Source: a virus (taxonomy: Duplodnaviria > Heunggongvirae > Uroviricota > Caudoviricetes). Taken from it: 64,000 bases of DNA. A model generated the notes under the pieces. That model was given only the letters and a program-made list of their open reading frames with translations, made no database searches and was not told the origin of the DNA. Below are positions 44,237 through 64,000 of this stretch, piece after piece. The stretch is from IMG/VR virus record IMGVR_UViG_2695420423_000004; one strand, 5' to 3'. Position 1 is the first letter of the stretch. Every line of letters begins with the position of its first letter. Both the position numbers and the translations under genes were made by a program.

Positions 44237-44246
44237 GGCATAACAA

Positions 44247-45216: not shown

Positions 45217-45468
45217 TTGTCGCTGGTGGTAACGATGGGAAAAATAACTTTTGTAGTCGAATTTGAGGATGGCAAAGAGCCACCTGTTAGCGCCAATCTT
45301 GATGTTGCTGGTGGCAGGCTTGTTTCGGTTCTATTTGGTGACTACCGAGATGATTTCTTCCAACCAGAAGAAGTTGATGTAGTGCGAGAAGCATTAAATG
45401 AGCTAAGTGTTGATAACGATGATGCTCATGCGGAAATCATCAAAAAAATGGAATTGCTAACTTACTAA
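45217..45468 (+). CDS. hypothetical small protein
   Basis: 83-aa ORF. Confidence 0.4.
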   Translation: MSLVVTMGKITFVVEFEDGKEPPVSANLDVAGGRLVSVLFGDYRDDFFQPEEVDVVREALNELSVDNDDAHAEIIKKMELLTY

Positions 45469-46331: not shown

Positions 46332-47245
46332 CCAGAATCACTGAAGAGCGTATATCAGAGATTATTTCCCGTATCGAAATGTATGGTCACGGTGCTGGAT
46401 ATACGGCAGATGAAGTATTGGCACTTGCCCAAATGGCTTTGGCGGCTTGCAAAGATGATAAAAAAATGAAGTTTATCGACTTGTTAGTGAAGGAACTGCC
46501 TAAGTGCGGCGGGTGGCCTGATGGAATGAGTTATTGTTACCTACCCAGTGTCAATTTAATGGCACCATGCGCGACTTTTGCTTTTGGCTCAGACCACAAA
46601 AAAGACACTTTCTTTGGGCGCAATTTTTGTTGTGAGATTGAGCTTCCAATTGGTGACCTTGATAGCGATGAATACCAGTCAGTTGTCACTCGCGAACAAT
46701 ACGAATCAGCTCTCATAGCGTCGCAGAAAGTCGAGTTCAATGGTGATGAACTTGAAAGTAAGACTTACAGGTTGGATTTTGGGCAATGGCTGGAACAGCA
46801 ACGCGGGAAAATCGATGTGGACTGTGGTTGTGTGTCCACTGAAACATTCATGCACTGGCTGCGGGTAGCTTACGAGGCTGGCAACTATCCGGATATTCCG
46901 GATAGTTCGGTGCCAGCACCAGGAAAGGGCGTCACCGGTGAACGTATCCGAATTAAGCCGCATGTTTATCGCGAACTGGTTAACCGTCTCCACGATACAG
47001 CGATCAAGTGTGCTGGCACCCAGCAATTACGAGAAAGAATTAGCCGTGTTTTGGGCGACGTTATTACACCAGATCATCATACACAAGCCGAGAAAAGTGG
47101 CCTGGAAAGGTGTCACCTTGAGGCGGCATTAAACATTAAGCCGGGGCATACGCTTGGCATTATTGATGCACTATTGGTTCATAAGATGGCCAGGGCTTTA
47201 TTGCCGCTGGTGGATGCTGGCGATACAAGCGAGGGTGAAGTATGA
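46313..47245 (+). CDS. hypothetical protein
   Basis: 310-aa ORF. Confidence 0.5.
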   Translation: MAQKEMTRITEERISEIISRIEMYGHGAGYTADEVLALAQMALAACKDDKKMKFIDLLVKELPKCGGWPDGMSYCYLPSVNLMAPCATFAFGSDHKKDTFFGRNFCCEIELPIGDLDSDEYQSVVTREQYESALIASQKVEFNGDELESKTYRLDFGQWLEQQRGKIDVDCGCVSTETFMHWLRVAYEAGNYPDIPDSSVPAPGKGVTGERIRIKPHVYRELVNRLHDTAIKCAGTQQLRERISRVLGDVITPDHHTQAEKSGLERCHLEAALNIKPGHTLGIIDALLVHKMARALLPLVDAGDTSEGEV

Positions 47246-47604
47246 GAGTTGCAGATCACATCAAACACCTTGAAAGAATTATCGAAAACGGTGAACTCTT
47301 AAGAGATCAGATGAGACGCACGGCAGAAGTCAGAGAGGCGATAATCCGCAGTCAGGCTGGTAAATTAAAGCAATTATCAGAGATTAACGCGCTATACAAG
47401 AACAGACGTAACCGGGCGGCGCTGCGGCTTCAGAAAGCACGTAATGAAATTAAATTGGTGGAGGCAAAACTGAAAAAACAGATTCAGCGTTACGATCAGC
47501 AAGATGCTTTTTATGCCGCCATCAAGGCGGCTGCTAATGAAATAGGCATCTGGAAGTTGCTGGTGGAGAAAGCAAAGACGAAGTTAAATGCCAACGAAAG
47601 CTGA
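47242..47604 (+). CDS. hypothetical coiled-coil protein
   Basis: 120-aa ORF. Confidence 0.45.
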   Translation: MRVADHIKHLERIIENGELLRDQMRRTAEVREAIIRSQAGKLKQLSEINALYKNRRNRAALRLQKARNEIKLVEAKLKKQIQRYDQQDAFYAAIKAAANEIGIWKLLVEKAKTKLNANES

Positions 47605-47678
47605 ACTACAGGTACCCACCAGCACATACAGAAAATGATTGTTTCCACATCAAGGAGATTTTAATGTTTCACTGAACA

Positions 47679-47816
47679 TTAAGTAAGCCAGTGCATAATT
47701 CCATTTTTTACTGACCTTAAAAGCAAAATCAAAACGATGATGAGGATGATCGCCAGAATCTGGCTAATAACAGGCGCATCTAAAAATGCACTCAGGAACT
47801 GAAAAAAAGCAGTCAT
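47679..47816 (-). CDS. candidate 45-aa hydrophobic peptide
   Basis: Hand translation MTAFFQFLSAFLDAPVISQILAIILIIVLILLLRSVKNGIMHWLT; AAGGA upstream; convergent with the early operon; below the ORF-track cut-off. Confidence 0.3.
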   Translation of the reverse strand: MTAFFQFLSAFLDAPVISQILAIILIIVLILLLRSVKNGIMHWLT

Positions 47817-48265
47817 TAAGGTGGTTCCTTGTCAAATGTAAAGGAGCACTTGCTCACGTTGACGTAGAAACCCAACCCCTATATAGTTGGATTCGGTGAA
47901 AGAAAGTCGTTAACGTGAGCTTACGGCACATGTTTTCGGAACAACATCAGGGAACGGCTAATTCCTTGATGCGGATGGGGTCTGTAATGCAGACCCTATC
48001 TATTAACGTCATGATTGCATCTCAAATTTTCTCCTTATCTTCATTAATCAAAATTCATTTCATTTGTGAAACATCACAATATTTAGAAAATGGCCCTCTT
48101 GCAAGTGCATAACTTTGTGGATAAATCAGGAAGAAAAAAGTTGATTCTGCGCACGGCAAGGCAGATAAGCTGTGCACAAAAATCAATGGGAAAAGAAAAA
48201 AAATTAAAAGTTACTTTGCTGGTTAAATAATAGTCGTTACGCAATTGTTCTGGATGGGATTTGAT

Positions 48266-48517
48266 ATGCACGATTGGAATATTGCAGCTAAAAGTCAGGA
48301 AGAACGGGATAAGGTTAACGTTGATCTGGCTGCCAGCGGTGTGGCGTACAAAGAGCGATTGAACATACCTGTCATAGCTGAACAGGTAGCCCGCGAGCAA
48401 CCAGAGAATCTGCGCACCTATTTCATGGAACGGTTACGGCACTATCGGCAGTTAAGCCTCCAGTTGCCAAAAGGGAGCGATCCGGTGTATCAGAACGAGG
48501 ATGCACCAAAAAAATAA
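48266..48517 (+). CDS. hot: Hot, homologue of DNA polymerase III theta subunit (HolE)
   Basis: From ATG 48266: ...[36 protein letters not shown] aligns with E. coli HolE. Confidence 0.7.
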
Positions 48518-48602
48518 CGGCAAGATGGGGGAGAAATGTGATTAGCCCCCAGCGTGGCGCGCCTACAAACCCCGCTTTCACAAACTATGCCTTTTCAATG
48601 TA

Positions 48603-48622
48603 TACTGTATGAATAAACAGTA
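48603..48622 (+). promoter_or_regulatory. LexA box (SOS box) upstream of humD
   Basis: tactgtatgaataaacagta fits CTGT-N8-ACAG, 19 bp upstream of the humD start. Confidence 0.55.
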
Positions 48623-48640
48623 TCATTGAGGTAAAACGCT

Positions 48641-49030
48641 ATGGGCTTCCCTTCTCCTGCGGCGGATTATGTTGAAAGCCGAATTTCTCTTGATCAGCAG
48701 ATAATTAGACATCCTTCAGCGACCTACTTCATGCGGGCAGCTGATAGCCATCACCGTGAGGGAATATTGCAGGGTGCTTTGCTGGTGGTTGATTCCTCGC
48801 TTACTCCGGTTGATGGTTCTCTGCTTGTGTGCGCTATGGAGGGTGAATATCGCATAAAGAGATACAGGAAGTATCCGCGCCAGCACCTGGAGGATTTAAG
48901 CACCGGGAAGAAAGAGGCGTTACCAGTAGATGACGATGGATACACGGGCAGTAATGCTGTTTTTGGTGTGATCACTCATGTCATCAATGATGCCCGAAGT
49001 GGGGAATTTGATGATTGTCCGGTTATTTAA
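48641..49030 (+). CDS. humD: HumD, UmuD-like peptidase S24 protein
   Basis: 129 aa, UmuD'-like; downstream of the LexA box. Confidence 0.8.
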   Translation: MGFPSPAADYVESRISLDQQIIRHPSATYFMRAADSHHREGILQGALLVVDSSLTPVDGSLLVCAMEGEYRIKRYRKYPRQHLEDLSTGKKEALPVDDDGYTGSNAVFGVITHVINDARSGEFDDCPVI

Positions 49031-49102
49031 GCTGCAAAGTGCTGGTGCTTTATGCCTGTGAAGTTTATAATTGTGTACACATAACGAGTACACGAGGTGT
49101 TT

Positions 49103-49324
49103 ATGCAATCCATTAACTTCCGTACCGCGCGTGGCAACCTTTCTGAAGTGCTCAACAATGTTGAAGCCGGGGAAGAGGTTGAAATCACCCGCAGAGGCCG
49201 TGAGCCAGCAGTAATTGTCAGCAAGGCTACTTTCGAAGCCTACAAAAAAGCGGCGCTGGATGCTGAATTTGCATCCCTGTTTGACACCCTGGACTCCACC
49301 AACAAGGAACTGGTTAACCGATAA
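49103..49324 (+). CDS. phd: Phd antitoxin
   Basis: [73 protein letters not shown] recognised as P1 Phd (73 aa). Confidence 0.9.
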
Positions 49325-49704
49325 TGAGGCATATATCACCGGAAGAACTTATTGCGCTTCATGATGCGAATATAAGCCGCTACGGCGGCCTGCCGGGAAT
49401 GTCTGATCCGGGTAGGGCAGAGGCCATTATCGGGAGAGTTCAGGCCAGAGTTGCCTACGAAGAGATCACCGACCTTTTCGAAGTCTCCGCCACCTACCTG
49501 GTGGCTACAGCGAGAGGGCATATATTCAATGATGCCAATAAGCGTACCGCGCTAAACAGTGCGCTGCTATTTCTACGCCGTAACGGGGTGCAGGTATTTG
49601 ATTCACCTGAACTGGCAGACCTTACCGTAGGCGCTGCGACTGGCGAGATATCTGTATCTTCTGTCGCCGACACGTTACGTAGATTGTATGGTTCTGCGGA
49701 GTAG
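49324..49704 (+). CDS. doc: Doc toxin (Fic-fold kinase)
   Basis: 126 aa, recognised as P1 Doc; overlaps the phd stop. Confidence 0.9.
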
Positions 49705-49708
49705 ATTA

Positions 49709-49888
49709 ATGGCACGCAAATACAACAAATTGTCCCGTGAAGCGTTAAAGATGCTTCTTGATGGCGTGAGTCGCCGCAAGGTAAAGCAATACCTGGTTGG
49801 TAAGCAAATTGGAGTCAGGACCGCTATTGCTGTGTTATGCCGTCAGGAAATGGTTGTGCTTAAACAGAGAATGCCGGGCAGCAGATAA
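49709..49888 (+). CDS. small protein downstream of doc (pdcA-like by position)
   Basis: Track ORF 49688..49888; internal ATG MARKYNKL... assumed. Confidence 0.35.
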   Translation: MARKYNKLSREALKMLLDGVSRRKVKQYLVGKQIGVRTAIAVLCRQEMVVLKQRMPGSR

Positions 49889-49915
49889 AGCCCAATCAGT
49901 GATTAAAGGTGTGAT

Positions 49916-50959
49916 GTGAAAGCCGTAATTACTCCATTTGTACAGAAAGAGCTTGGCCTCGCCACGTTCAAAGTGGATCAGGAGGTCAGAAAGCTGGTGG
50001 AGGCTGGCCGTAAATTTATTATGGAGCCGGTGCCGCGTGAGTTAATCGAGCACATGGAAGACGGCCTCGTTGTTACCGAGCAAACCATGGCAACAAATGA
50101 GGCGTTGCAGCCGTTTTTTAACAGCGATGAACTGTTTCGCCGTATTGGTGGAATTGACGCGCTGGTGGCGTGGTTGCGTAGGAAAGAGGGTCAATGCCAG
50201 GCCGCAGATCGTAGTTGGTGTGACAACCATATTGTCCACGCTGAACGAGACAATAGCGCGGTGTTGTTGTGCTGGCATCACGATAACCATTACCGGATGC
50301 GTGGTTTTAATGAGCTGAAAGAAACGCTGCACAATAATCGCGTTAACTGGATACTGGATGTCGCCCGTCAGGAAATGGGCCTTTCAAATAGCCATGATTT
50401 AAGTATTCAGGAGCTGTGCTGGTGGGCTTTCATGCGCAACATGATGCACCTGATGCCGGAAGAAGTCTGCCGCATATCAATAAATAAGATGAAGGCTACT
50501 CCGCAGGATAGCGGACCTCTGAAAGAGGCGGATATTCGCCCGTATGACGATCGCGCTACAGCATATGTTCAGATGATGGAAGAACGCGCCGCGCCGATGC
50601 GTGCAAAAGTATGCCCTGTGGATGTTGACTCCGACCCTGGCATGGCGCATTTCAAAATACCAAAACTGCAATCGCTAAAATTACCTGAGTACATGGACTT
50701 TGTTGCTTCCCGTCCATGCTGTGGGTGTGGAGCTGCGGGAGCTGGCGCTCACATTACGCCTTATATCGTTCGTCATAGTCGATTATGCGCACATGACATT
50801 TACGCAATTCCTCTGTGCCAGTCATGCCAGCGTGATATTGAGCGTGACCGCGATAATTGGGAGAAGACGCACGGTAGGTTGGCGATGCATCAACGATTGT
50901 TCTTTGATTACGCGCTTGGAGTGGGCGTTATCACAAGTCATTCGTCGAGTGTTAGATAA
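49916..50959 (+). CDS. Cys-rich protein downstream of doc (pdcB-like by position)
   Basis: 347 aa; CCGCGAAGAG...CQSCQ Cys cluster. Confidence 0.5.
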
Positions 50960-50960
50960 A

Positions 50961-50977
50961 ATTGCTCTAATGTATTG
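50961..50977 (+). promoter_or_regulatory. C1 operator upstream of lpa
   Basis: attgctctaatgtattg, 13 of 17, core ATTGCTCTAAT intact. Confidence 0.5.
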
Positions 50978-51047
50978 CTATTTCTTTAATCGAGGGTATT
51001 ATATTCCACGTTGATTAGTTGACATGGGCTAATCAGTAGGTGACAGG

Positions 51048-51500
51048 ATGTTACTTAACTGGCAGGGACGCCACTTCATGGAAATAAATCACTCACGAAT
51101 AACATCGTACGAGATTGCGGATTACATGATCCGCACTAAATCTCTTCTATCAGCGAAAGAACTCGCAGCAATTCTTGAAAAGGAATACCCGCATCTGGAT
51201 GTCGATAAGCGCGATGTTTATCTGCGCTTAAAGGCTATCGCTGTGTCTAAGTATTCGTCTGTTTTGATAGATGACAGTACACGCCCACGTAGATTTCAGA
51301 TCCACTCTCTGAATCCTGAATTCTTTCGCCGTAGCCGCGCTCCGCGCCGGTTTGATGAAAAACTCCAGAACGAACTCTATATGACGCAGGACGAAAAGGA
51401 ACGCCGGGAGCACCAGCCTTGGGTAATGGCGCGTCAACTTTTCAATAAGGTGGCCCGTCAGCACCGTCATTACGGTAATGCCACATCCGCACGTATCTGA
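51048..51500 (+). CDS. lpa: Lpa, late promoter activator (gene 10)
   Basis: 150-aa ORF between the pdc region and pacA, preceded by a C1 operator; assignment by synteny; alternative start at 51078. Confidence 0.65.
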   Translation: MLLNWQGRHFMEINHSRITSYEIADYMIRTKSLLSAKELAAILEKEYPHLDVDKRDVYLRLKAIAVSKYSSVLIDDSTRPRRFQIHSLNPEFFRRSRAPRRFDEKLQNELYMTQDEKERREHQPWVMARQLFNKVARQHRHYGNATSARI

Positions 51501-51585
51501 TTGATTGCTTGCCCGTTCCGGGCCTTTTGACATGTGACTTTCGTTACCCTCGCGTCAAAAAGAGTTTTTACGAAAGGAAGCATAA

Positions 51586-52779
51586 GTGACCTGGGACGAT
51601 CACAAGAAGAATTTTGCTCGCCTGGCGCGAGATGGTGGTTACACCATCGCACAGTATGCCGCCGAGTTTAATCTTAACCCTAATACCGCACGTCGTTATC
51701 TCCGTGCCTTCAAAGAAGACACCAGGACTACGGACAGCCGCAAGCCAAATAAGCCAGTCAGGAAGCCACTAAAAAGCATGATCATTGATCACTCTAATGA
51801 TCAACATGCAGGTGATCACGTTTCGGCTGAAATAGCGGAAAAACAAAGAGTTAATGCCGTTGTCAGTGCCGCAGTCGAGAATGCGAAGCGCCAAAATAAG
51901 CGCATAAATGATCGTTCAGATGATCATGACGTGATCACCCGCGCCCACCGGACCTTACGTGATCGCCTGGAACGCGACACCCTGGATGATGATGGTGAAC
52001 GCTTTGAATTCGAAGCTGGCGATTACCTGATAGATAACGTTGAAGCGCGGAAGGCCGCGCGCGCTATGTTGCGTCGGTCCGGGGCCGATGTTCTGGAAAC
52101 CACTCTTCTGGAAAAGTCTCTTTCTCATCTCCTTATGCTGGAGAACGCCAGGGATACGTGTATTCGCCTGGTGCAGGAAATGCGCGATCAGCAAAAAGAC
52201 GATGATGAAGGTACTCCGCCTGAATACCGTATCGCGAGCATGCTAAACAGCTGTTCCGCGCAGATAAGCAGCCTGATCAACACCATTTACAGCATCCGGA
52301 ATAACTATCGAAAAGAAAGCCGGGAGGCGGAAAAGCACGCTTTATCTATGGGGCAAGCTGGCATTGTTAAGCTGGCATACGAACGAAAGCGTGAAAATAA
52401 CTGGTCAGTGCTGGAAGCGGCTGAATTCATCGAGGCGCATGGAGGAAAAGTGCCTCCCCTGATGCTGGAGCAAATCAAAGCCGATCTGCGTGCTCCTAAG
52501 ACCAATACCGATGATGAGGAAAACCAAACAGCATCTGGCGCTCCATCACTTGAAGATCTGGATAAAATCGCGCGAGAACGGGCCGCCAGCCGCCGCGCTG
52601 ATGCGGCATTGTGGATTGAGCATCGTAGAGAAGAAATTGCCGATATCGTCGATACAGGTGGTTATGGTGATGTCGATGCGGAAGGCATATCAAACGAAGC
52701 ATGGCTTGAACAGGATCTGGACGAAGACGAGGAGGAAGACGAAGAAGTTACCCGCAAACTGTACGGGGATGATGATTAA
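51586..52779 (+). CDS. pacA: PacA, terminase small subunit
   Basis: 397 aa, GTG start; contains the pac hexamer clusters. Confidence 0.85.
51779..51964 (+). other. pac packaging site
   Basis: Four TGATCA hexamers (51779, 51786, 51798, 51813), about 90 bp spacer, then TGATCG/TGATCA/TGATCA (51909, 51921, 51932) and one more at 51959; the 4+3 layout of P1 pac. Confidence 0.75.
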
Positions 52780-54263
52780 TGGCCAGAAGTTGCGTAACGG
52801 ACCCACGTTGGCGCGAGCTGGTGGCGCTATATCGTTATGACTGGATTGCGGCCGCTGATGTGTTGTTTGGGAAGACACCAACCTGGCAGCAGGATGAGAT
52901 CATTGAGTCCACGCAGCAGGACGGCAGTTGGACAAGTGTGACCTCCGGCCATGGTACTGGTAAATCGGATATGACGAGTATCATTGCAATACTCTTCATC
53001 ATGTTTTTCCCCGGCGCTCGCGTCATTCTGGTCGCTAACAAAAGACAGCAAGTCCTTGATGGTATTTTCAAATACATAAAGAGCAATTGGGCTACTGCTG
53101 TTAGCAGATTCCCGTGGTTGTCGAAGTATTTCATTCTTACAGAAACGTCTTTTTTTGAGGTGACTGGCAAGGGTGTTTGGACAATATTGATAAAGTCCTG
53201 TCGCCCCGGAAATGAGGAGGCGTTGGCTGGTGAACACGCCGATCATCTCTTGTATATCATCGACGAAGCGTCGGGTGTGAGTGATAAAGCATTCAGTGTG
53301 ATAACAGGTGCGCTGACCGGTAAGGATAACCGTATTCTGCTTCTTTCCCAGCCTACGCGACCTTCAGGCTATTTCTACGATTCACACCACAGACTAGCTA
53401 TTCGCCCGGGAAATCCTGATGGATTGTTTACTGCGATAATACTGAATAGTGAAGAATCTCCGCTTGTAGATGCAAAATTTATACGAGCAAAACTTGCGGA
53501 GTATGGCGGTCGTGATAACCCCATGTACATGATCAAAGTACGTGGTGAATTTCCCAAATCTCAAGATGGCTTTCTTCTTGGTCGTGATGAGGTTGAGCGG
53601 GCGACGCGGCGAAAGGTCAAGATTGCCAAAGGATGGGGCTGGGTTGCATGTGTTGACGTTGCTGGTGGCACAGGACGAGATAAGTCCGTTATTAATATCA
53701 TGATGGTGTCCGGCCAGCGAAATAAACGCCGTGTAATCAACTATCGTATGCTGGAATACACAGACGTTACAGAAACGCAGTTAGCCGCCAAGATTTTCGC
53801 AGAATGTAACCCAGAACGGTTCCCGAACATAACCATAGCTATTGATGGCGATGGCTTGGGGAAATCGACGGCTGATCTAATGTACGAACGCTATGGCATT
53901 ACCGTCCAGCGTATCCGCTGGGGTAAAAAGATGCACAGCCGTGAAGATAAAAGCCTTTATTTCGATATGCGCGCTTTCGCGAATATTCAGGCGGCAGAAG
54001 CTGTAAAATCAGGGCGTATGAGGCTTGATAAGGGGGCTGCGACTATAGAGGAAGCATCAAAGATACCGGTAGGGATAAATTCCGCAGGTCAATGGAAGGT
54101 GATGTCAAAGGAAGATATGAAGAAAAAACTCAACCTGCACTCACCGGACCATTGGGATACATATTGTTTCGCTATGTTGGCGAACTATGTTCCCCAAGAT
54201 GAAGTGCTTAGCGTCGAAGACGAAGCGCAGGTTGATGAAGCTCTGGCATGGCTTAATGAATAA
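52779..54263 (+). CDS. pacB: PacB, terminase large subunit
   Basis: 494 aa immediately after pacA. Confidence 0.8.
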
Positions 54264-54288
54264 CAATTTGACCATGCCGGATGGAAAA

Positions 54289-55140
54289 CTATTGCGCGCT
54301 TTCGGGGTTGCTGTTTACTGGCTGCCCCTTCTTAGTTTTACGGCTGCGCGTAACTGATGCGGCTGATTTGACCTTTTTCTCTTCGCGAGTGATGGCAATT
54401 TGTTTTTTTACATTTTCAATATCTGCCAGGCGATATATTTTTGCCTGCGGCCAGCGGTCGCAGATGATCGGTTCTATAGAGTCATAAAGGCTAAATTTTG
54501 CTTTCTCGAATTCACCGTTGATGATGATTCCATCACGGAGAGTTTCATCGCAGATAAACACACCACACAGCGGCACATGGTAACTAACTGATTTACCATC
54601 ATTGTAGTTAGGGCTACTGGAAATGTAATGGACGCGCAGCATTGTTTCGCTAAAGCCGTGTACACGCATACGGAATTTTTCATCCTCCGGGTACTGCTTC
54701 ATTAGCTCTTTTGTTGCTTCCAGGTTCTCTATGTATTTCGCACTGTGCTCATTGATCCCCGCGCTTTTCTGGATGCGAATGTCCTTATCAATCAGATGAA
54801 TAATGCGGCCAGCGGTCATGTTGACGCTGTTCACAGCTTCTGTCTGATAAGTAGTAACCTTACGCACACCGCGAAGGATGTTAGGCACTGGATATAAAAT
54901 AGTCTTTGGGATATTGAGGTCTGGGTACTGTTCCAGTTCCCGCGCCATTAAAGTCCATTTATCAATTTCAGCCTGAATGCTGTCCGTTTCTTTGAACGGC
55001 AGAACGACAACCGGGCGAACAGGACGACCGTCGCTGGCGGCATCAACGTGTTGGGCGCGTGCAACAGCTTTTTTTAGAAAGAGATCCCTGAAGCTGACGA
55101 ACTCCTGGTACAGTTGTTCGCCGTAGACATAATTTATCAT
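54289..55140 (-). CDS. c1: C1 repressor of lysis
   Basis: 283 aa, the size of P1 C1; convergent with pacB; coi and operators upstream; loxP-cre adjacent. Confidence 0.85.
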   Translation of the reverse strand: MINYVYGEQLYQEFVSFRDLFLKKAVARAQHVDAASDGRPVRPVVVLPFKETDSIQAEIDKWTLMARELEQYPDLNIPKTILYPVPNILRGVRKVTTYQTEAVNSVNMTAGRIIHLIDKDIRIQKSAGINEHSAKYIENLEATKELMKQYPEDEKFRMRVHGFSETMLRVHYISSSPNYNDGKSVSYHVPLCGVFICDETLRDGIIINGEFEKAKFSLYDSIEPIICDRWPQAKIYRLADIENVKKQIAITREEKKVKSAASVTRSRKTKKGQPVNSNPESAQ

Positions 55141-55233
55141 TGATCCTCCTCCAGAATTGACATGGCCAACAACTCACAGCGGATTACACTGGGAGTTGTT
55201 GGCCACCATTATAGAAGGATCCAACGAAAATAA

Positions 55234-55250
55234 TAGATTTATTAGTGCAT
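55234..55250 (-). promoter_or_regulatory. C1-operator-like site between coi and c1
   Basis: Reverse complement aatgcactaataaatc, variant of the consensus. Confidence 0.4.
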
Positions 55251-55460
55251 TTATTGTGAGTCTGGCTGGTTAGTGGCCATGAGATATTCGATTGTGTCAG
55301 TGAGATCATCCAGGTCGTCTTGGGTGATGCGGTACTCCTGATTGGATATCTTTGAGTAGTGTTCAGCAATGGCGCGGGCAGCGTCGGTTTCGGCGGGGTC
55401 TACAGATAAAGCGTTAGAGCAATGTCTAACGTCGTCGATGGTTGGTGGAATGAAAGCCAT
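55251..55460 (-). CDS. coi: Coi, C1 inactivator
   Basis: 69 aa, directly upstream of c1 on the same strand. Confidence 0.8.
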   Translation of the reverse strand: MAFIPPTIDDVRHCSNALSVDPAETDAARAIAEHYSKISNQEYRITQDDLDDLTDTIEYLMATNQPDSQ

Positions 55461-55539
55461 AATTATGCCTCACTGTATTGACAACACAGAGCCTGAAGCT
55501 CTGACCTACTGTTTCACCCATGATCCATGCTGGGGTAAT

Positions 55540-55653
55540 CTAACAACATTGCGCTGTGTGTAAGATGAGCAATGCATAGCTGTAATGCCGTTGTATAAGG
55601 TTTCCCTGTTTGCTCATTTCCTTCTGAGCCGCTCTACAACGCTGAAGACACAT
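55540..55653 (-). CDS. small ORF upstream of coi (imc-like by position)
   Basis: 37-aa hand-translated ORF between the operator cluster and coi. Confidence 0.25.
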   Translation of the reverse strand: MCLQRCRAAQKEMSKQGNLIQRHYSYALLILHTAQCC

Positions 55654-55700
55654 TAAATAGTGAATCCAAAGTCGTATTACGAAACGGCGGCAAAACTATA

Positions 55701-55715
55701 ATTTATTAGAGCAAT
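55701..55715 (-). promoter_or_regulatory. C1 operator (Op99-cluster-like)
   Basis: atttattagagcaat is the reverse complement of attgctctaataaat. Confidence 0.6.
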
Positions 55716-55781
55716 TGTCAAACAACTATGAAAAACAATCCAGTTTTTGGCTGGTGGAGTGGGATTTTTCTCTCAAAATTT

Positions 55782-55798
55782 ATTGCTCTAATAATTCT
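55782..55798 (+). promoter_or_regulatory. C1 operator (Op99-cluster-like)
   Basis: attgctctaataattct, 14 of 17. Confidence 0.55.
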
Positions 55799-55841
55799 TG
55801 ATTTTTATGCGCAGCTGGACGTAAACTCCTCTTCAGACCTA

Positions 55842-55875
55842 ATAACTTCGTATAGCATACATTATACGAAGTTAT
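55842..55875 (+). other. loxP: loxP site-specific recombination site
   Basis: Exact ATAACTTCGTATA-GCATACAT-TATACGAAGTTAT. Confidence 0.97.
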
Positions 55876-55889
55876 CTTAAGGGTTATTG

Positions 55890-55970
55890 AACATGATCAA
55901 TTTACCTGTAAATCCATACAGTTCAATACCTTATCAGGTCAAATAGTGATCACTTGATCATTTGATCAAG
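55890..55970 (+). promoter_or_regulatory. cre promoter region with clustered GATC (Dam) sites
   Basis: GATC at 55895, 55948, 55956, 55964 between loxP and cre. Confidence 0.4.
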
Positions 55971-56293
55971 GTTGCGCTACGTAAAATCTGTGAAATGTTG
56001 GCAGTGTTAGTGCTCCAGATTTCGCGTAGCGCACTTAGCACCACCAATCAATCAGAGGTGAAAAATGGGATATTCAGCTGCTAAAGTGTCCACTCATATT
56101 GAGCTTGAGAAAAACCGTGGTTACTGGCGGGCAAAAGGGTTTGATCGTGATAGTTGTCAACTGTCATTATCGCGCGGTGAAGAGAAAATAGAACGCACGC
56201 GCGGTCGCTGGCGTTTCTATGACGAGAACCATAAACAGGTAAAGGCAGAGCCGATCCTGTACACTTTACTTAAAACCATTATCTGAGTGTTAA

Positions 56294-57325
56294 ATGTCCA
56301 ATTTACTGACCGTACACCAAAATTTGCCTGCATTACCGGTCGATGCAACGAGTGATGAGGTTCGCAAGAACCTGATGGACATGTTCAGGGATCGCCAGGC
56401 GTTTTCTGAGCATACCTGGAAAATGCTTCTGTCCGTTTGCCGATCGTGGGCGGCATGGTGCAAGTTGAATAACCGGAAATGGTTTCCCGCAGAACCTGAA
56501 GATGTTCGCGATTATCTTCTATATCTTCAGGCGCGCGGTCTGGCAGTAAAAACTATCCAGCAACATTTGGGCCAGCTAAACATGCTTCATCGTCGGTCCG
56601 GGCTGCCACGACCAAGTGACAGTAATGCTGTTTCACTGGTCATGCGACGGATCCGAAAAGAAAACGTTGATGCCGGTGAACGTGCAAAACAGGCACTGGC
56701 GTTCGAACGCACTGATTTCGACCAGGTTCGTTCACTCATGGAAAATAGCGATCGCTGCCAGGATATACGTAATCTGGCATTTCTGGGGATTGCTTATAAC
56801 ACCCTATTACGTATAGCCGAAATTGCCAGGATCAGGGTTAAAGATATCTCACGTACTGACGGTGGGAGAATGTTAATCCATATTGGCAGAACGAAAACGC
56901 TGGTTAGCACCGCAGGTGTAGAGAAGGCACTTAGCCTGGGGGTAACTAAACTGGTCGAGCGATGGATTTCTGTCTCTGGTGTGGCTGATGATCCGAATAA
57001 CTACTTGTTTTGCCGTGTCAGAAAAAATGGTGTTGCCGCGCCATCTGCCACCAGCCAGCTATCAACTCGCGCCCTGGAAGGGATTTTTGAAGCAACTCAT
57101 CGATTGATTTACGGCGCTAAGGATGACTCTGGTCAGAGATACCTGGCCTGGTCTGGACACAGTGCCCGTGTCGGAGCCGCGCGAGATATGGCCCGCGCCG
57201 GAGTTTCAATACCGGAGATCATGCAAGCTGGTGGCTGGACCAACGTAAATATTGTCATGAACTATATCCGTAACCTGGATAGTGAAACGGGGGCAATGGT
57301 GCGCCTGCTGGAAGATGGCGATTAG
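56294..57325 (+). CDS. cre: Cre recombinase (tyrosine recombinase)
   Basis: 343 aa, MSNLLTVHQNLPALPVDATSDEVRKNLMDMFRDRQAFSEHTWKMLLSVCRSWAAWCKLNNRKWFPAEPEDVRDYLLYLQARGLAVKTIQQHLGQLNMLHRRSGLPRPSDSNAVSLVMRRIRKENVDAGERAKQALAFERTDFDQVRSLMENSDRCQDIRNLAFLGIAYNTLLRIAEIARIRVKDISRTDGGRMLIHIGRTKTLVSTAGVEKALSLGVTKLVERWISVSGVADDPNNYLFCRVRKNGVAAPSATSQLSTRALEGIFEATHRLIYGAKDDSGQRYLAWSGHSARVGAARDMARAGVSIPEIMQAGGWTNVNIVMNYIRNLDSETGAMVRLLEDGD, recognised as Cre. Confidence 0.97.
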   Translation: MSNLLTVHQNLPALPVDATSDEVRKNLMDMFRDRQAFSEHTWKMLLSVCRSWAAWCKLNNRKWFPAEPEDVRDYLLYLQARGLAVKTIQQHLGQLNMLHRRSGLPRPSDSNAVSLVMRRIRKENVDAGERAKQALAFERTDFDQVRSLMENSDRCQDIRNLAFLGIAYNTLLRIAEIARIRVKDISRTDGGRMLIHIGRTKTLVSTAGVEKALSLGVTKLVERWISVSGVADDPNNYLFCRVRKNGVAAPSATSQLSTRALEGIFEATHRLIYGAKDDSGQRYLAWSGHSARVGAARDMARAGVSIPEIMQAGGWTNVNIVMNYIRNLDSETGAMVRLLEDGD

Positions 57326-57342
57326 CCGTTCATTTGCACTTG

Positions 57343-57359
57343 ATTGCTCTAATTATTTG
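57343..57359 (+). promoter_or_regulatory. C1 operator upstream of cra
   Basis: attgctctaattatttg. Confidence 0.5.
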
Positions 57360-57375
57360 ATATTTATGGTGACGC

Positions 57376-57687
57376 ATGCGGAAGGATTTCAAAATAGACG
57401 GAAAATATGTGGTGCTGTCTGTAAGCTCTCAAATTCAGTCACCATCTGTCATTGTCACCGTAAAGTTGAGCGATAGGATGCCTGATATCGACTCGATATC
57501 TGTTGCGTTCCCCGTTAAAAGCATGCGGAGTGCTGAACATTTTGTGATGAATGCAACGGAGGAGGAAGCGCGGCGCGGGCTTACTAGAGTGATGGTGGAA
57601 TTTGGCGAACTCCTGGGTAAGGTAAACAATGCCCTTTCAATCAGTTCAGCAAGATCCAAAGCGTTAACAGCTTCCATGATGAAATAA
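57376..57687 (+). CDS. cra: Cra-like protein (cre-associated, by position)
   Basis: 103-aa ORF directly after cre. Confidence 0.55.
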   Translation: MRKDFKIDGKYVVLSVSSQIQSPSVIVTVKLSDRMPDIDSISVAFPVKSMRSAEHFVMNATEEEARRGLTRVMVEFGELLGKVNNALSISSARSKALTASMMK

Positions 57688-57818
57688 AAAAAGCCTGGCA
57701 AGGAGCCAGGCTGCACAAAAGAGCGGTTTTGTATTCCGCATCCAATCAATCAAGAAGGAGTATAGCACACAGGTACTGAAGTGAAAAAATGTGATTCGCG
57801 ATTAACAAAATATCTACC

Positions 57819-57835
57819 ATTGCTCTAATTGATTG
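57819..57835 (+). promoter_or_regulatory. C1 operator upstream of ref
   Basis: attgctctaattgattg, followed by a second partial copy attgctataat. Confidence 0.55.
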
Positions 57836-57902
57836 CTATAATTAAGCCGCAGTTTTTGTCAACTACGAAGACGTTGCCATTACTTAACTCCTTGACATCA
57901 TT

Positions 57903-57928
57903 GGCGGCCATTAGGCCGCCTTTTTTTT
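57903..57928 (+). terminator. hairpin plus T8 in the ref leader
   Basis: ggcggcc-atta-ggccgcc followed by tttttttt, ending 6 nt before the ref ATG. Confidence 0.5.
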
Positions 57929-57933
57929 GCCAT

Positions 57934-58494
57934 ATGAAAACAATCGAACAAAAACTTGAACAGCGCCGCGAGTGGCAGAAGGCAGCCAGAGAACGAGCGA
58001 TCGCTCGGCAACGGGAAAAGTTGGCTGACCCCGCCTGGCGAGAATCGCAATATCAGAAAATGCGGGATTCTATCGACCGCCGTATCGCTAAACAGAAAGA
58101 GCGCCCACCAGCCAGCAAAACGCGGAAAAGTGCGGTAAAGATAAAATCTCGTGGCTTGAAGGGGCGAACATCGACAGCGGAGGAACGGAGCATCGCCAAT
58201 GCTCTTGGCGCTCTCCCCTGCATTGCCTGCTACATGCATGGAGTAATATCTGAAGAGGTATCTCTGCACCATATCTCCGGTCGTACCGCGCCGGGTTGTC
58301 ACAAAAAGCAATTGCCCCTTTGTAGATGGCACCACCAGCATGCAGCACCGGCTGAAGTAAGAGAAAAATACCCCTGGCTGGTCCCTGTTCATGCCGATGG
58401 TGTGGTTGGAGGCAAGAAAGAATTCACCTTGCTGAACAAGTCAGAGATGGAGTTGCTGGCTGACGCCTATGAGATGGCAAACATCATGCACTAA
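57934..58494 (+). CDS. ref: Ref, recombination enhancement function (HNH-type nuclease)
   Basis: Track ORF 57829..58494; ATG at 57934 (MKTIEQKLEQ...) gives 186 aa; Cys/His cluster CIACYMH...HH...C..HH. Confidence 0.75.
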   Translation: MKTIEQKLEQRREWQKAARERAIARQREKLADPAWRESQYQKMRDSIDRRIAKQKERPPASKTRKSAVKIKSRGLKGRTSTAEERSIANALGALPCIACYMHGVISEEVSLHHISGRTAPGCHKKQLPLCRWHHQHAAPAEVREKYPWLVPVHADGVVGGKKEFTLLNKSEMELLADAYEMANIMH

Positions 58495-58683
58495 TAAATA
58501 TATTATTTTTAATCTGAAATAATTGACAACTGACAAGTGACTTCAGTCAGAATCATCACATGCCCGGTACGGATGGATCCCTTTTCAAATATTCCATGGA
58601 CGGCACAGTCTGAGTACCGGGCGCTACCTTCAGTTGTATTGCTAAGCCGCCGCTGGTGGCTTTTCTTTTTTGTAGGGGGCGCT

Positions 58684-59325
58684 ATGGATAAGAAAATATG
58701 CGTTGTTTCGATGAGCGTCGGCAAACCGGCGTCAATGACTGCTGCATGGATCAACAATGAGCTAATAATGGCTGAGCGGACCAGCTACCCTGAACGCCGC
58801 CGCGATATGGAACTCCAGCTGCTGCGCGAATTGCGAGAAAAAGAGGAAAAGGGTTTTATCGTGCTGGTGGAAGAGGAAAACAGCTTTATTACTGGTCGAG
58901 TTGGCCAGCGTGTAAGGTTGCGCGATCCCTTCATGAACGGCAGGCCGGTACTAATTGAGGCAATGCAGATTTATAAGGAGCTGGAACGCCAGAAAGCAAT
59001 CAAGTTACCGCGCAAGGAATCCGGCAAATACATCCTCCACCAAAGCATCTTCGATTCCGAACACGATAAAAAAGGCGATGAATTTTTCAACATCAACTGG
59101 AGCGAAATAACGACAGAGCATGTTCTGACGTTACTATGTTGCTTTGCGACGGAATACAACAACGTTGCCAGCGCCGACTACATCAGGGCAATGGCTGGAG
59201 AAGTTGAGGCACGCCAGGAACCATCGTTACTAAGCCCTCTGATTAACATAATTCGCGGCACCCAAACGCTGGCACAAAAACAGGTGCCTAAGGGAGTATT
59301 AACAGGAAAAGGAAATTATCTATAA
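58684..59325 (+). CDS. mat: Mat-like particle maturation protein (by position)
   Basis: Track ORF 58537..59325; ATG at 58684 (MDKKICVVSMSV...) with AGGGGG upstream. Confidence 0.55.
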   Translation: MDKKICVVSMSVGKPASMTAAWINNELIMAERTSYPERRRDMELQLLRELREKEEKGFIVLVEEENSFITGRVGQRVRLRDPFMNGRPVLIEAMQIYKELERQKAIKLPRKESGKYILHQSIFDSEHDKKGDEFFNINWSEITTEHVLTLLCCFATEYNNVASADYIRAMAGEVEARQEPSLLSPLINIIRGTQTLAQKQVPKGVLTGKGNYL

Positions 59326-59381
59326 ACGTCAATGCATTAGGGTATACTTCTCCGTAGAACTATAAGTAAATGGAGTAAGTA

Positions 59382-60686
59382 ATGAGCGAGTATATAGAAA
59401 TTGCCTATGCAGCGGCTACACATAGGCTGTGCTTTCTTACAGGCACTGGATTTTCAAAGGCTGTTTCTGATGATAAAGCCCCAAGTTGGCAATCTTTATT
59501 GGAGCAACTGTGCGGTTTATTGAAGGATGGTGACTCACTCAAAGAGGAATTATTTCCTGATGGAAAAGCAAAAGACCTTAGCCTTGAAGAAGCTGCTCAG
59601 GTTATTGCACTAAAATTTATACTTTCGGGGAAAAATATTTACCAAGAGATTGAGAAAATCATAGCCTCAATCGAACTTGATCCATCAATTGAATATATTC
59701 AAGACTTTTTCAAAGAAAACACATTTAAAGTAATTACGACAAATTATGACAAGTTAGCAGAAAAGCTGGCTGGAGAGAATCGAACGTGTACAATCACCCC
59801 CGGCCTGCCAATTCCAAAATATAATTGTGAGGTTAAAGTCTACCATGTTCACGGTTCTATAGACTCCCCATCAGACATGGTTGTTACTAGCGAGGATTAT
59901 TTCAGATTTATAAATGGTAATTCTTACTTTTCTAATAAACTAAGCACAGTTCTACATGAAAACACTATTGTTATCCTTGGCTATTCTCTAAGTGACGCGA
60001 ACCTAAAGGCTATTATAAATGAATATAAGGTATTTTCACGGGACAACGTAATGTCCTCCAATATTTTCCTTGTTTCCCGAGGGGAACTATTGCAACCTAT
60101 TAAAGATTACTATTTTTCCTGCTATGGGGTTAGGGTTATAGATAAAACAGAGGTATCTGATTTCTTTAGAAAACTTAACGATAAAATTCCAGAAGCAAAA
60201 AAAATAAAAGACAAATTGAGGCACTCAATCAAATCGGTAATAAAAAACGGAAGAGAGTATAAAATAGAGTTCTTGAAGCTAGAGGATTCTTTTTATCATA
60301 TCATTTCCTCCATTTCATCATCTGGATATAGCTGGAATAATGAAAATGTATTAAATGTTTTTTGTAATATAATAGATAAAAAAATAGAACTTACTAAAAA
60401 GCCTGGCGCATGGGAGCAGTATGAACACCTGGCAAAATGGCTTATTTATTTCGGTAGTTTATTTGAAGTAAAAGGAACCAATTTTGAGAAAAAATACATA
60501 CATGCGGTTGAACACTCAATGACTTATATGAATAAACCTTACGAAACAGGCTACTCATGGCTAGCATATCTAGCCTGGAAAACAAAATGGCCTTCACTGA
60601 CAGCATCTAACCGCTCTCTTATTAAGAATGAGATGGAAGATATCCCGCTACAACAGATTCACGATATTGTATCTAAGTTTATATAG
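59382..60686 (+). CDS. SIR2-like (SIR2_2-type) domain protein with uncharacterised C-terminal domain; candidate anti-phage effector
   Basis: 434 aa; FLTGTGFS (18-25), ITTNYD (118-123, Asn121), YHVHGS (154-159, His157), ILGYSLSD; AT-rich; GGAG site; occupies the P1 res-mod position. Confidence 0.8.
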   Translation: MSEYIEIAYAAATHRLCFLTGTGFSKAVSDDKAPSWQSLLEQLCGLLKDGDSLKEELFPDGKAKDLSLEEAAQVIALKFILSGKNIYQEIEKIIASIELDPSIEYIQDFFKENTFKVITTNYDKLAEKLAGENRTCTITPGLPIPKYNCEVKVYHVHGSIDSPSDMVVTSEDYFRFINGNSYFSNKLSTVLHENTIVILGYSLSDANLKAIINEYKVFSRDNVMSSNIFLVSRGELLQPIKDYYFSCYGVRVIDKTEVSDFFRKLNDKIPEAKKIKDKLRHSIKSVIKNGREYKIEFLKLEDSFYHIISSISSSGYSWNNENVLNVFCNIIDKKIELTKKPGAWEQYEHLAKWLIYFGSLFEVKGTNFEKKYIHAVEHSMTYMNKPYETGYSWLAYLAWKTKWPSLTASNRSLIKNEMEDIPLQQIHDIVSKFI

Positions 60687-60695
60687 TATATTTAT

Positions 60696-60722
60696 CTCCG
60701 GCCTAATCTCCCTAGGCCGGAG
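60696..60722. terminator. bidirectional terminator between the SIR2-like gene and the lxc-like gene
   Basis: Perfect 10-bp stem ctccggccta / taggccggag with a 7-nt loop. Confidence 0.6.
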
Positions 60723-60727
60723 AGTTC

Positions 60728-60976
60728 TTAATCAGCATTCAGAAGCAATGCGTTATCTATGATGATCTGCTCCCATTCTTCGAATGCCCGGTCGCGGACG
60801 CCCTGGGGAACACTGTTTGTTTTGAAATCGACGACCGTCCGCCATTTCCCGTCCGGACGGTACATGCGCAGAGCTTTACTTCCCCCTTCCCTGCGCACCT
60901 CAACGTTATGCTTGTCAGCAAACTCTTGTAATGCTCGTAGCGTCCCATGCTTTACTGTGTAGTATCGCTTTTTCAA
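60728..60976 (-). CDS. small protein (lxc-like by position and size)
   Basis: 82-aa ORF, 4-nt overlap with the upstream gene; downstream of the darB-like gene as lxc is in P1. Confidence 0.45.
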   Translation of the reverse strand: MKKRYYTVKHGTLRALQEFADKHNVEVRREGGSKALRMYRPDGKWRTVVDFKTNSVPQGVRDRAFEEWEQIIIDNALLLNAD

Positions 60977-61413
60977 GTTTTCTCTCCAGCCTGTGCCAAG
61001 GCTTCAACTTCCAAATCGTAAGACTCAAACTCATAGTCCTGGTCGTCAACTTCTTCAGGCACTGGCAGTAAATGCCAGGCTGAGTATATCTGACCATTAT
61101 CAAAACGCTCCTGGCTGTAGAGCGTCGCGGCTATGAGTGTTAGCGCCGGGCGGTCATAACGGTAAATTTTGCGAACGTCACGGTCAACGAGACGACCGAA
61201 ATTACCATAACCGCGCTCCAGTAATAATTTTTTAATTTCCGGCCAGTATGGACCATAGCTGCGGTACAGGCGGGGATTTTTCAGTAATCGCCCGCGTAGC
61301 CCTGACAGGAAGAAATCAACGTATTCGTCTTCTGTCTTTCCTAACAACGCTGTACGGAGTACCGCCTCAAGATATGTTTTATTCGGTTTTATTGTATCAG
61401 ATAGTGTGGCCAT
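60973..61413 (-). CDS. small protein (ulx-like by position)
   Basis: 146-aa ORF between the darB-like gene and the lxc-like gene. Confidence 0.4.
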   Translation of the reverse strand: MATLSDTIKPNKTYLEAVLRTALLGKTEDEYVDFFLSGLRGRLLKNPRLYRSYGPYWPEIKKLLLERGYGNFGRLVDRDVRKIYRYDRPALTLIAATLYSQERFDNGQIYSAWHLLPVPEEVDDQDYEFESYDLEVEALAQAGEKT

Positions 61414-61446
61414 ATTATGCGACGCCCGGCGAACCGGGCGCTCCTG

Positions 61447-63951
61447 TTATGCGTATTGTTGGATGACGGCCAGAACGTCCGCCACGTTGTGTTTTGTCTC
61501 GATAATCCACCAGTTACCCGGGAAATCGCTGTTCTTCGCCTTCGCTGGCAGCCAGCGAGCGCCGAATTTCGCCTTGATTGCGTCTTTCGCACGGAAAAGA
61601 ACGCCTTTCATGCCTGAGGCTTCCTGAAGCCCAAATACCTCGCCAGCGGCGAATTTTGGTGCGTACATCATCTTCAGGTCGGCGGTGGATACGCGATAAT
61701 TCAGACCAAGAGACTGAGCTATGCTGGTGGCATCACCCTGTATTGATGATAACTCTTCTTGTTTCTCGTTTCTGGCGGCAATCTCTTCCTCCGTGATGTT
61801 GCCAAGGGCTAGGTTTATCCGATCAGCGTCGGCCTGTTTCTCTTCATCGGTGCGCCCGGCAAGAACCGTGTTAATTCTCTGCAATATCTCCACATGATTC
61901 TTGCGCATGCTGAGCAATTCCGGCGTAACCTCGTTAAGATCCACCAGCCCAAGGATGGCAAGGTCGGAAAACATTGATACCAGGTTGTAGGTCATGCGAT
62001 AGCTGAGTTGACCATAGGCTGATGGCAACTTCACCGCATCCATTTGATAGGCATCCATAAATTTAGAGCCGTCGTTTACGACATCCGCTATTGCAGGTGT
62101 GATTTTCCCTGTGGTGGCGGCCTCCCTGATTGCTGTTACCCACGATTGAGTCAGCGCGGCGACTGCATGATTCAGATTGGCTTCCCGTTCTGCTTCGATG
62201 CGCGCGCTTGCTGCGTCCATTGCCTGCTTGATCTCGGCTTTATTGCTGTAAATGCCAATGGTGCCAAACTGTGCTGTGGTGATCTCATAATCTGACGCCC
62301 GGAACTCATTGGTACCGAAAATGGCATTGGTGACTTCAAGTTCAGAATCCCCGTTACGAGTAGCCCCCTGGCTTGTTTTTTCCGGCATTCTGGCGATCGC
62401 ATCCGCTATTTTCTCCTGAATTGCTTCAGGGGATAGCGTATCTCCGTATGACGCGATTACATCGCCATAATTGGAGCCAAACAATTCAACCAGGAATGTT
62501 TCTGCCGAACGGATCTGGCGGTTATTCCCTTCCGACATCATACCAAGCACCCATTTTGCAATTGACGACTTCAGCGCGCCGTCACGGCGATCCGGGTAAA
62601 CCGCATGCTTCAGTGGGTCCGTATAGGTACCAACAAAATCAATGCTATAGCCTGACTCTGTAGTCTGAACGCCGTACGAGTCAGTTATTTTGATCATGCC
62701 GCGCTGCTGGAAACGGTAGAAATCGTCACAGGAAATGATGTCGTTAATCCCGGCGATGGAGACGCCACCACTGATTTTCTGCATAACAGCATCTTCATCG
62801 GGAGTTACATCCACCTGTTTATCCAGCGTCTTCACATCCCAGTTACCCGATTTGGTGCCTTTGAAGGTAAAGATGATCTCCACGTCTGCGCGCTGGCTGT
62901 CGAAGTCCAGCGACTTAATGCGAACGATATCACCGGCACAATCGTAGTATTGGCCTACACGCCATGAGCGATCGCCGATAACAAGGAACTCACTCGCATG
63001 GTTAACCAGGTCAGGATCAACATCCAGAATGCCTTTATTTATTGCATCCTCCACCAGCGGGCGCAGGCGTTTGATATCCGTCGCGGCCTTCTGAGTACGG
63101 TTCAATAATTTCTCATAGCGGGAGATGGCTTGAGAGATATTAGCCTTGCGCTGAATGGCGCTTTTCAACGACGCGCGATACTGTGCTAACAACGTACGGT
63201 CTGTGTGATGGACGCTACCCCAGCGGGCTTTCCAGTCTGCGTTATCAGCTGCTTTGGCCATTACCGCCTGTTTGAATTTAGCTACCTCGGCGGTGGTCTT
63301 TTCAAGTTCCGCTTTGCTTCGCTCTAATTCAGCGGTAAGTACCTCCACATCCTCGCCAGCTGCGTGCTGCGCCTTGATGTAGTTCTGAAGGTCGATAGTA
63401 GCCTGTTCTTTCTGGCGAGCGCGTTGCGCGGCTTTCGCCTTATCCATTTGAACCTGCATCATTGCCAGACGTTCGCCATCATCCTTAGCGGTATACATCT
63501 GCATTTCGATCATATCGTTGGCGTCGGCGTTCTCCATTTCTGACTTATCTGAACGGAGGATATCGGAGATCCAGCCTGCTTTACGCTTCAGCGTCTTCAG
63601 TCGGTATTCATCGAAAGAACCCTTGCCGCAGTAGTAGTGAACGCGAACGCTTGCACGGTTGGAGCCAACTCGGGCACCGCGACCGTTACGCTGTGCGATA
63701 CTGGCTGGTGTCCATGGCAACGTCAGATGATGGATGTCAGTCGTTCCTCGATGCAGGTTGATACCCACCTCTGCCTTTTTGTTGCAGATGATGATCGGAG
63801 TCCGGCCCTCCTGGAAGTCGGCTGCAATCTTTTCCAGACCGCCCAACGACATTTCATTCTGCTGCGCGATATAGGCGTCATACAGAGCCATTTGCTCGTT
63901 GTAGGGGTTTGGGGAGCAATGGAACCAAAAACCAACGTAAGAGTCTACCAT
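61447..63951 (-). CDS. darB: DarB-like protein, C-terminal region (begins inside a helicase C-terminal domain)
   Basis: 834-aa ORF; N-terminus carries helicase motifs (TPIIICNKKAEVGINL and QRNGRGARVG); in-frame TGA 3 codons upstream of the ATG while another frame stays open to the window edge. Confidence 0.55.
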   Translation of the reverse strand: MVDSYVGFWFHCSPNPYNEQMALYDAYIAQQNEMSLGGLEKIAADFQEGRTPIIICNKKAEVGINLHRGTTDIHHLTLPWTPASIAQRNGRGARVGSNRASVRVHYYCGKGSFDEYRLKTLKRKAGWISDILRSDKSEMENADANDMIEMQMYTAKDDGERLAMMQVQMDKAKAAQRARQKEQATIDLQNYIKAQHAAGEDVEVLTAELERSKAELEKTTAEVAKFKQAVMAKAADNADWKARWGSVHHTDRTLLAQYRASLKSAIQRKANISQAISRYEKLLNRTQKAATDIKRLRPLVEDAINKGILDVDPDLVNHASEFLVIGDRSWRVGQYYDCAGDIVRIKSLDFDSQRADVEIIFTFKGTKSGNWDVKTLDKQVDVTPDEDAVMQKISGGVSIAGINDIISCDDFYRFQQRGMIKITDSYGVQTTESGYSIDFVGTYTDPLKHAVYPDRRDGALKSSIAKWVLGMMSEGNNRQIRSAETFLVELFGSNYGDVIASYGDTLSPEAIQEKIADAIARMPEKTSQGATRNGDSELEVTNAIFGTNEFRASDYEITTAQFGTIGIYSNKAEIKQAMDAASARIEAEREANLNHAVAALTQSWVTAIREAATTGKITPAIADVVNDGSKFMDAYQMDAVKLPSAYGQLSYRMTYNLVSMFSDLAILGLVDLNEVTPELLSMRKNHVEILQRINTVLAGRTDEEKQADADRINLALGNITEEEIAARNEKQEELSSIQGDATSIAQSLGLNYRVSTADLKMMYAPKFAAGEVFGLQEASGMKGVLFRAKDAIKAKFGARWLPAKAKNSDFPGNWWIIETKHNVADVLAVIQQYA

Positions 63952-64000
63952 CGCCGTTCAGTCCCTTCTTCCCATGCATTTGCATCAACATTGCAATTAC

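Follow-up and report, generated by a model that had tools for sequence, protein, structure and literature searches.

What interrupts darB at the edge of this DNA? The window analysed here, a stretch of 64,000 nt, ends in the 3' part of a darB-like gene whose beginning is missing, and the original prediction explained the interruption by a frameshift, a split gene or a sequencing error. We found that the gene is indeed interrupted, but the cause is neither a frameshift nor a sequencing error: the DNA beyond position 63903 is foreign and belongs to a transposon. The split darB is thus very probably the edge of a Tn5563-like transposon of the Tn3 family lying inside the gene, in other words an insertional knockout.

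We began from the ORF at the window edge. An ORF of 834 aa does run on the minus strand from an ATG at 63951 (61447..63951), and an in-frame TGA stands three codons before it (63960-63958), with more stops farther upstream, as had been described. The helicase C-terminal motifs noted in its first 100 residues correspond to a Pfam Helicase_C match at residues 34-96; this match covers profile positions 49-110 of 110, so that the ORF retains the domain's distal part only. P1 DarB is a protein of 2255 aa (AAQ13985.1 / YP_006479.1), the size quoted beforehand, in which Pfam places N6_Mtase/Eco57I at residues 145-290, a SNF2/ResIII lobe at 833-911 and Helicase_C at 1455-1517. Residues 17-834 of the ORF align with P1 DarB 1438-2255 over 818 codons with no gaps and 11 substitutions, and with the closest plasmid, CP088419.1, with 3 substitutions. 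This collinearity leaves nothing to repair and removes the indel suspected at 63940-63960.

The part of the ORF that is truly darB therefore occupies 61447..63903 on the minus strand, comprising codons 1438-2255 of P1 DarB and the stop codon (61447-61449). Its assignment rests on megablast identities of 97-100%, the gap-free protein alignment and Pfam Helicase_C, and it encodes the distal Helicase_C and the C-terminal region. An intact DarB would be a single protein of about 2255 aa with a capsid-targeting signal, an N6-methyltransferase and both SNF2-type helicase lobes. Here residues 1-1437 are missing, and with them the capsid-targeting signal, N6_Mtase/Eco57I, the SNF2/ResIII lobe and the start of Helicase_C. 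The flanking genes ulx, lxc, mat, ref, c8 and cre are collinear between P1 and the window.

Similarity to P1-like replicons stops at a single base. When 61400-64000 was compared by megablast with phage genomes, 18 P1-type records matched at 97.4-99.3% identity, and all alignments begin at query base 98, which is window position 63903. An 8-kb query (56000-64000) was covered over at least 80% by 260 P1-like plasmids, and among the matches listed all the best ones end at 63903. The darB side was matched by 908 records in PLSDB and by 591 among 5,426 complete E. coli genomes (RefSeq), and the junction was spanned by 0/908 and 0/591 of them. In P1 coordinates the break lies at nt 12925, where DarB codon 1438 begins. 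Aligning the region to P1 darB had been proposed as a check on a frame change; the P1 DNA upstream of the break cannot be aligned to the window, and homology ends at 63903. The N-terminal half had been expected upstream in another frame, yet 63904-64000 shows no resemblance to DarB residues ~1400-1437 in any of its three frames, and slippery-site frameshifting is likewise rejected. No darB 5' sequence was found within the 64-kb window.

The 97 bases beyond the break (63904-64000) are instead identical (100%, E = 3e-43) to a transposon end found in at least 96 plasmids, mostly of Klebsiella; plasmids with the 100% match annotate the sequence as the end of a recombinase gene. Relatives at ~87% identity occur in Pseudomonas, Aeromonas and IncP-6 plasmids. 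A four-way alignment gives a clean chimera, with transposon sequence up to ...CCCCAAACCCC and darB from TACAACGAG onward. One transposon-target joint is therefore visible, with 97 nt of the element: a resolvase 3' end, a 38-bp repeat and then darB.

The repeat, GGGGTTTGGGGAGCAATGGAACCAAAAACCAACGTAAG, is an exact match on the plus strand at 63904..63941 and represents a terminal inverted repeat of the Tn3 family (Tn5563/Tn5044 subgroup). Its form, GGGG...ACGTAAG, is that of Tn3-family terminal repeats, which measure ~38 bp, start with GGGG and end internally in ...TAAG, and Tn5563a shares conserved 38-bp repeats with other members of the family (PMC4133298). The window holds one exact copy, where shuffled sequences predict 0 by chance, and no second copy lies inside the 64 kb. 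The outer GGGG adjoins darB, and the junction falls exactly there, as would be expected of a joint made by a transposase.

On the inner side of the repeat, the last 18 codons of tnpR, a serine resolvase gene, occupy 63945..64000 on the minus strand (...NCNVDANAWEEGTERRW, followed by TAG at 63947-63945). The gene and the darB fragment thus point the same way, and the stop codon is three bases from the inner boundary of the repeat. This tip is the C-terminus of a 306-aa recombinase encoded by pKAZ2 and the Klebsiella plasmids, with Pfam Resolvase and HTH_7 on the full protein. A TnpR adjoining the element end, another Tn3-family feature, is thus seen here from its 3' tip only. On the other side of the joint, the junction alignment singles out the five darB bases next to the transposon (63899..63903; TACAA in the darB sense, TTGTA on the plus strand) as a candidate target-site duplication. 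TACAA is the 5-bp duplication that would be expected from a simple insertion, since the same element in pKAZ2 is flanked by the 5-bp duplication TATGA.

We further investigated the identity of the element through pKAZ2 (KR827391), which carries a near-complete copy. There the repeat is present as an inverted pair with 1 mismatch, bounding a 6.9-kb element with TATGA as a direct duplication on both sides. The element encodes the 306-aa serine resolvase, an RHH_6 antitoxin, a PIN_3 toxin and a Tn3-type transposase (DUF4158 + DDE_Tnp_Tn3), the tnpA gene being interrupted by an IS. This organisation is the one listed as '<tnpR A> T> tnpA>' for Tn5563a, Tn1412, Tn5044 and TnXc5 of the Tn3 subgroup (PMC7157771).

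Comparison with Tn5563 itself (pMHW-1, IncP-6) brings the relationship closer. The tnpR-proximal repeat is identical in the window and in Tn5563 (38/38 bases), and the pKAZ2 element shares with Tn5563 the order of a leftward tnpR, an RHH antitoxin, a PIN toxin and a rightward tnpA. Both resolvases are long (~306-309 aa) and end a few bases from the repeat. Tn5563 and Tn5563a, carried by pRA2 and IncP-6 plasmids, are placed in the Tn5044 sub-branch of the Tn3 subgroup of the Tn3 family. Tn5563 is credited with 39-bp repeats and 5-bp duplications (PMC4785139); ends of the Tn5563a type enter AT-rich DNA, generate 5-6-bp duplications and also move non-autonomous derivatives in trans (PMC4133298). 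The element is nevertheless not Tn5563, which we rejected: the repeat is identical, but the resolvases share 69% identity and the DNA inside the repeat ~87% over its first 71 nt. The pKAZ2 copy also lacks the merR/T/P cargo of Tn5563. From these comparisons the element is best described as a sister of Tn5563.

The pKAZ2 record labels the proteins 'Tn5045 resolvase/transposase'. We did not retain this name: Tn1013, which forms the backbone of Tn5045, is a member of the Tn21/Tn501 group (PMC7765201), whereas the organisation here is of the Tn5563 type. A text search of the literature with the repeat sequence found no paper, and a registered name for the element was not found.

The same end also occurs in clinical plasmids. 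Klebsiella and E. coli clinical plasmids (resolvase WP_022631165.1) and pKAZ2 are identical to the window end over 97/97 bases, and unlike in the window the target is neither darB nor a P1-like replicon in any of them. The context in the clinical plasmids varies: either blaSHV-12 lies close to the end, or the end precedes another resolvase, a YafQ toxin, a tnpA that is truncated, and a class 1 integron with arr-2, aac(6')-Ib and rmtF.

The junction could be traced to its source. The exact 834-aa protein has been deposited once, as CTS14120.1, 'defense against restriction protein [Escherichia coli]', on CXZU01000025.1 (72,702 bp), a contig of the draft E. coli assembly GCA_001284005.1, where it begins 49 nt from the contig end. 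Over its last 12,554 bases the window matches that end exactly, so that position 64000 is the end of the contig; this accounts for the 49 nt of sequence seen upstream of the ATG. The contig thus stops 97 nt into the transposon, and a transposase gene would lie past its end. Short-read assemblies often break at repeats and mobile elements, and the break most likely reflects an element that the assembly graph contained more than once or could not place unambiguously. Outside the transposon end, the window is collinear with an intact 94.6-kb IncY P1-like plasmid, pF16EC0278-2, the last block (48272-63903) being 99.44% identical. By P1 coordinates, the 5' half of darB would lie in the ~23 kb of plasmid absent from the contig.

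Among the collections searched, the junction is known from this one public draft contig only: it was absent from INPHARED phages, PLSDB, RefSeq complete E. coli, GTDB genome contigs, IMG/VR and JGI metagenomes. A protein search with the predicted N-terminal fragment (DarB 1-1438 followed by KGFGEQWNQKPT) found no 1450-aa representative, fragments being merged in a DarB cluster of 16,340 members. Literature searches with the assembly, contig and protein accessions returned spurious matches only.

Taken at face value, the reading frames at the edge do resemble a frameshift. In that explanation a natural or programmed shift, or a sequencing error, near 63940-63960 splits a continuous darB, so that the beginning of the gene is read in another frame, and the superficial pattern is there: an in-frame stop lies just upstream of the ORF, and another minus-strand frame is open to the window edge, as had been pointed out. 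That frame (VIAML...GSV*, 63878..64000) consists of 40 codons and closes at a TGA at 63880-63878 and not, as first placed, at about 63887. We consider it a non-coding chance frame running across the resolvase end, the repeat and darB, since it crosses the joint of two unrelated sequences and is neither the resolvase frame nor the DarB frame. The real coding frame at the edge is the third minus-strand frame, in which the true upstream gene, tnpR, is read. With transposon DNA at 100% identity upstream of 63903, and neither nucleotide nor protein similarity to darB there in any frame, a frameshift is barely conceivable. The 834-aa ORF is itself chimeric: its first 16 codons, MVDSYVGFWFHCSPNP, derive from the transposon, are read across the resolvase 3' end and the 38-bp repeat, and are fused in frame to DarB 1438-2255. 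Gene callers see this ORF because the repeat has no stop in the frame of darB and the resolvase gene's last codons and stop overlap an ATG (cgATGgTAG).

An artefact of assembly has somewhat more to say for itself. The last 97 nt could have been misjoined to darB, as a chimeric contig end, with the gene intact in the cell; the junction does lie at the very end of a draft contig and is unique among the collections searched. However, a random misjoin that hits to the base the outer end of the repeat recognised by the transposase would be an extreme coincidence, and darB and the repeat share no joint sequence able to mislead a de Bruijn graph, which makes an artefact highly improbable. A more serious competitor accepts the transposase and places the complexity elsewhere: the junction could belong to an unresolved cointegrate with the donor plasmid, or to an intramolecular product in which an adjacent deletion or inversion removed or relocated the 5' half of darB. 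Such a structure and a simple insertion share the same visible junction and differ only beyond the window. Tn3-family elements transpose replicatively through cointegrates (PMC7157771), large hybrid plasmids with darB exist (records of 140-267 kb), in clinical plasmids the same end belongs not to an intact transposon but to mosaics that also contain another resolvase and a class 1 integron, and the window is devoid of darB 5' sequence. Against this, the element encodes a resolvase, normally quick to resolve cointegrates, the remaining window is collinear with the intact 94.6-kb plasmid, and the 5' half of darB would, by P1 coordinates, simply sit on the unassembled remainder. We therefore regard a complex structure as unlikely, while giving it far more weight than a misjoin.

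Insertion into darB remains the best explanation of the locus. A member of the Tn5563/Tn5044 subgroup of the Tn3 family, or else a derivative that has the same end but is non-autonomous, would have inserted between DarB codons 1438 and 1439 in a P1-like IncY phage-plasmid of E. coli. Given the established mechanism of the Tn3 family (PMC7157771), it would have transposed replicatively from another replicon into darB, followed by resolution of the cointegrate. The outcome would be a simple insertion flanked by the TACAA duplication, with the 5' part of darB on another contig; this is the most likely configuration, and we hold it to be probable among all those considered. It predicts a far joint in which ...GATAGCGAAATACAA is followed directly by GGGGTTT(G/A)GGGAGCAATGG...

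With such an insertion darB is almost certainly inactivated, to judge from a fragment that lacks the methyltransferase, the helicase N-lobe, the proximal Helicase_C and the N-terminal capsid-targeting signal. The N-terminal 30 residues of DarB constitute this signal (PMC9024508), and the fragment would be unable to enter the capsid and protect injected DNA from type I (EcoK/EcoB) restriction. Phage progeny are accordingly predicted to show sensitivity to type I restriction. No effect is expected on plasmid maintenance or on virion production, given that lysogens of P1 delta-darB remain viable and produce virions (PMC9024508). The chimeric ORF might still be transcribed and translated by read-through from tnpR, which is co-directional with the fragment and whose stop overlaps the ATG; this is speculative, as is our expectation that its product has no functional role. 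A scan of 63500-64000 for promoters and terminators showed nothing informative close to the junction.

The transposon may also have carried cargo, possibly resistance genes, onto a transducible replicon. P1-like phage-plasmids carrying resistance are documented (PMC9600943). It is conceivable, if on balance doubtful, that beyond the contig end the element continues as a multidrug-resistance mosaic, in which case a P1-like phage-plasmid of E. coli would have taken up a resistance region of the Klebsiella type within its own anti-restriction gene. Were this so, the plasmid would be a transducible carrier of resistance with a host range narrowed by the loss of DarB.

Disruption of darB has precedents. 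In p1_025943 (NZ_CP027199.1), a P1-like IncY plasmid of E. coli, darB is split by the Tn3-family element IS3000, and the methyltransferase and helicase ORFs are annotated separately. That case differs from the present one in the transposon, of the IS3000 subgroup, in the site, and in a downstream fragment of 1830 aa as against 834 aa here. The protein database further contains many DarB variants of 810-2065 aa that are truncated or carry internal deletions. Disruption of darB is common, and the allele in the window belongs to a routine, well-known class of events and was already deposited and annotated. It is a further example of transposons landing, in P1-like phage-plasmids, in an anti-defence gene that the phage can do without. 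Its annotation should read darB::Tn, a disrupted gene with the end of a mobile element, and not a frameshifted gene or an 834-aa 'helicase'.

The chimeric 834-aa ORF (61447-63951, minus strand), in which 16 transposon-derived codons precede residues 1438-2255 of DarB, starts at the very end of the resolvase gene. At 63945-63951, its ATG overlaps the last Trp codon and the TAG stop of the resolvase (cgATGgTAG), and the two genes are co-directional. Given this overlap and shared direction, the DarB fragment could, judging from the sequence, be expressed through read-through transcription and coupled re-initiation. A promoter/terminator scan of 63500-64000 found no promoter-like site near the darB/transposon junction (63903/63904).

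The same transposon end, comprising the 38-bp terminal inverted repeat (63904-63941) and the 306-aa resolvase (3' tip at 63945-64000), is found, identical, in Klebsiella and E. coli clinical plasmids (L003, NZ_CP032188.1; L006; L007). Unlike in the pKAZ2 element, the resolvase end is not followed there by the RHH/PIN/tnpA module but by genes for a second resolvase (191 aa) and a toxin of the YafQ family, together with a truncated tnpA and a class 1 integron carrying arr-2, a group II intron, aac(6')-Ib and rmtF. An 8.4-kb plasmid carries blaSHV-12 near the identical end. These arrangements look like mosaics generated by resolvase-site recombination. The alignment of the Klebsiella plasmid L003 with the window runs 5 nt beyond the repeat, and four of the five bases outside the transposon end agree (L003 6996-7000; window 63899-63903). 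This agreement with the darB side is probably a coincidence or reflects an AT-rich target preference.

Damage to darB is frequent among public P1-like sequences (protein clusters P0006-P0044 and P0081; L005). It includes DarB variants of 1154-2065 aa with in-frame internal deletions and N-terminal fragments of ~810-898 aa, many of them 823 aa, while in plasmid p1_025943 (L005, NZ_CP027199.1 41640-55943) darB is split by an IS3000 insertion.

Elsewhere in the window, a single 434-aa SIR2_2-domain protein (ORF 59382..60686, plus strand, within 59320-60727) stands where P1 carries IS5 and res and mod, the EcoP1I type III restriction-modification genes, all absent here. This variant is common to many P1-like E. 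coli plasmids (protein cluster of 827 members), so the replacement looks like an exchange of defense genes at a known variable locus. When the window was compared by megablast with the closest complete P1-like plasmid, CP088419.1, seven blocks had no match of at least 200 bp (1741-2792, 6467-8706, 14219-16594, 18035-18459, 40103-42177, 43575-45222 and 47214-48271). Their flanks share 92-99% identity with CP088419.1, and the blocks presumably belong to the mosaic variable regions that P1-like plasmids usually carry.
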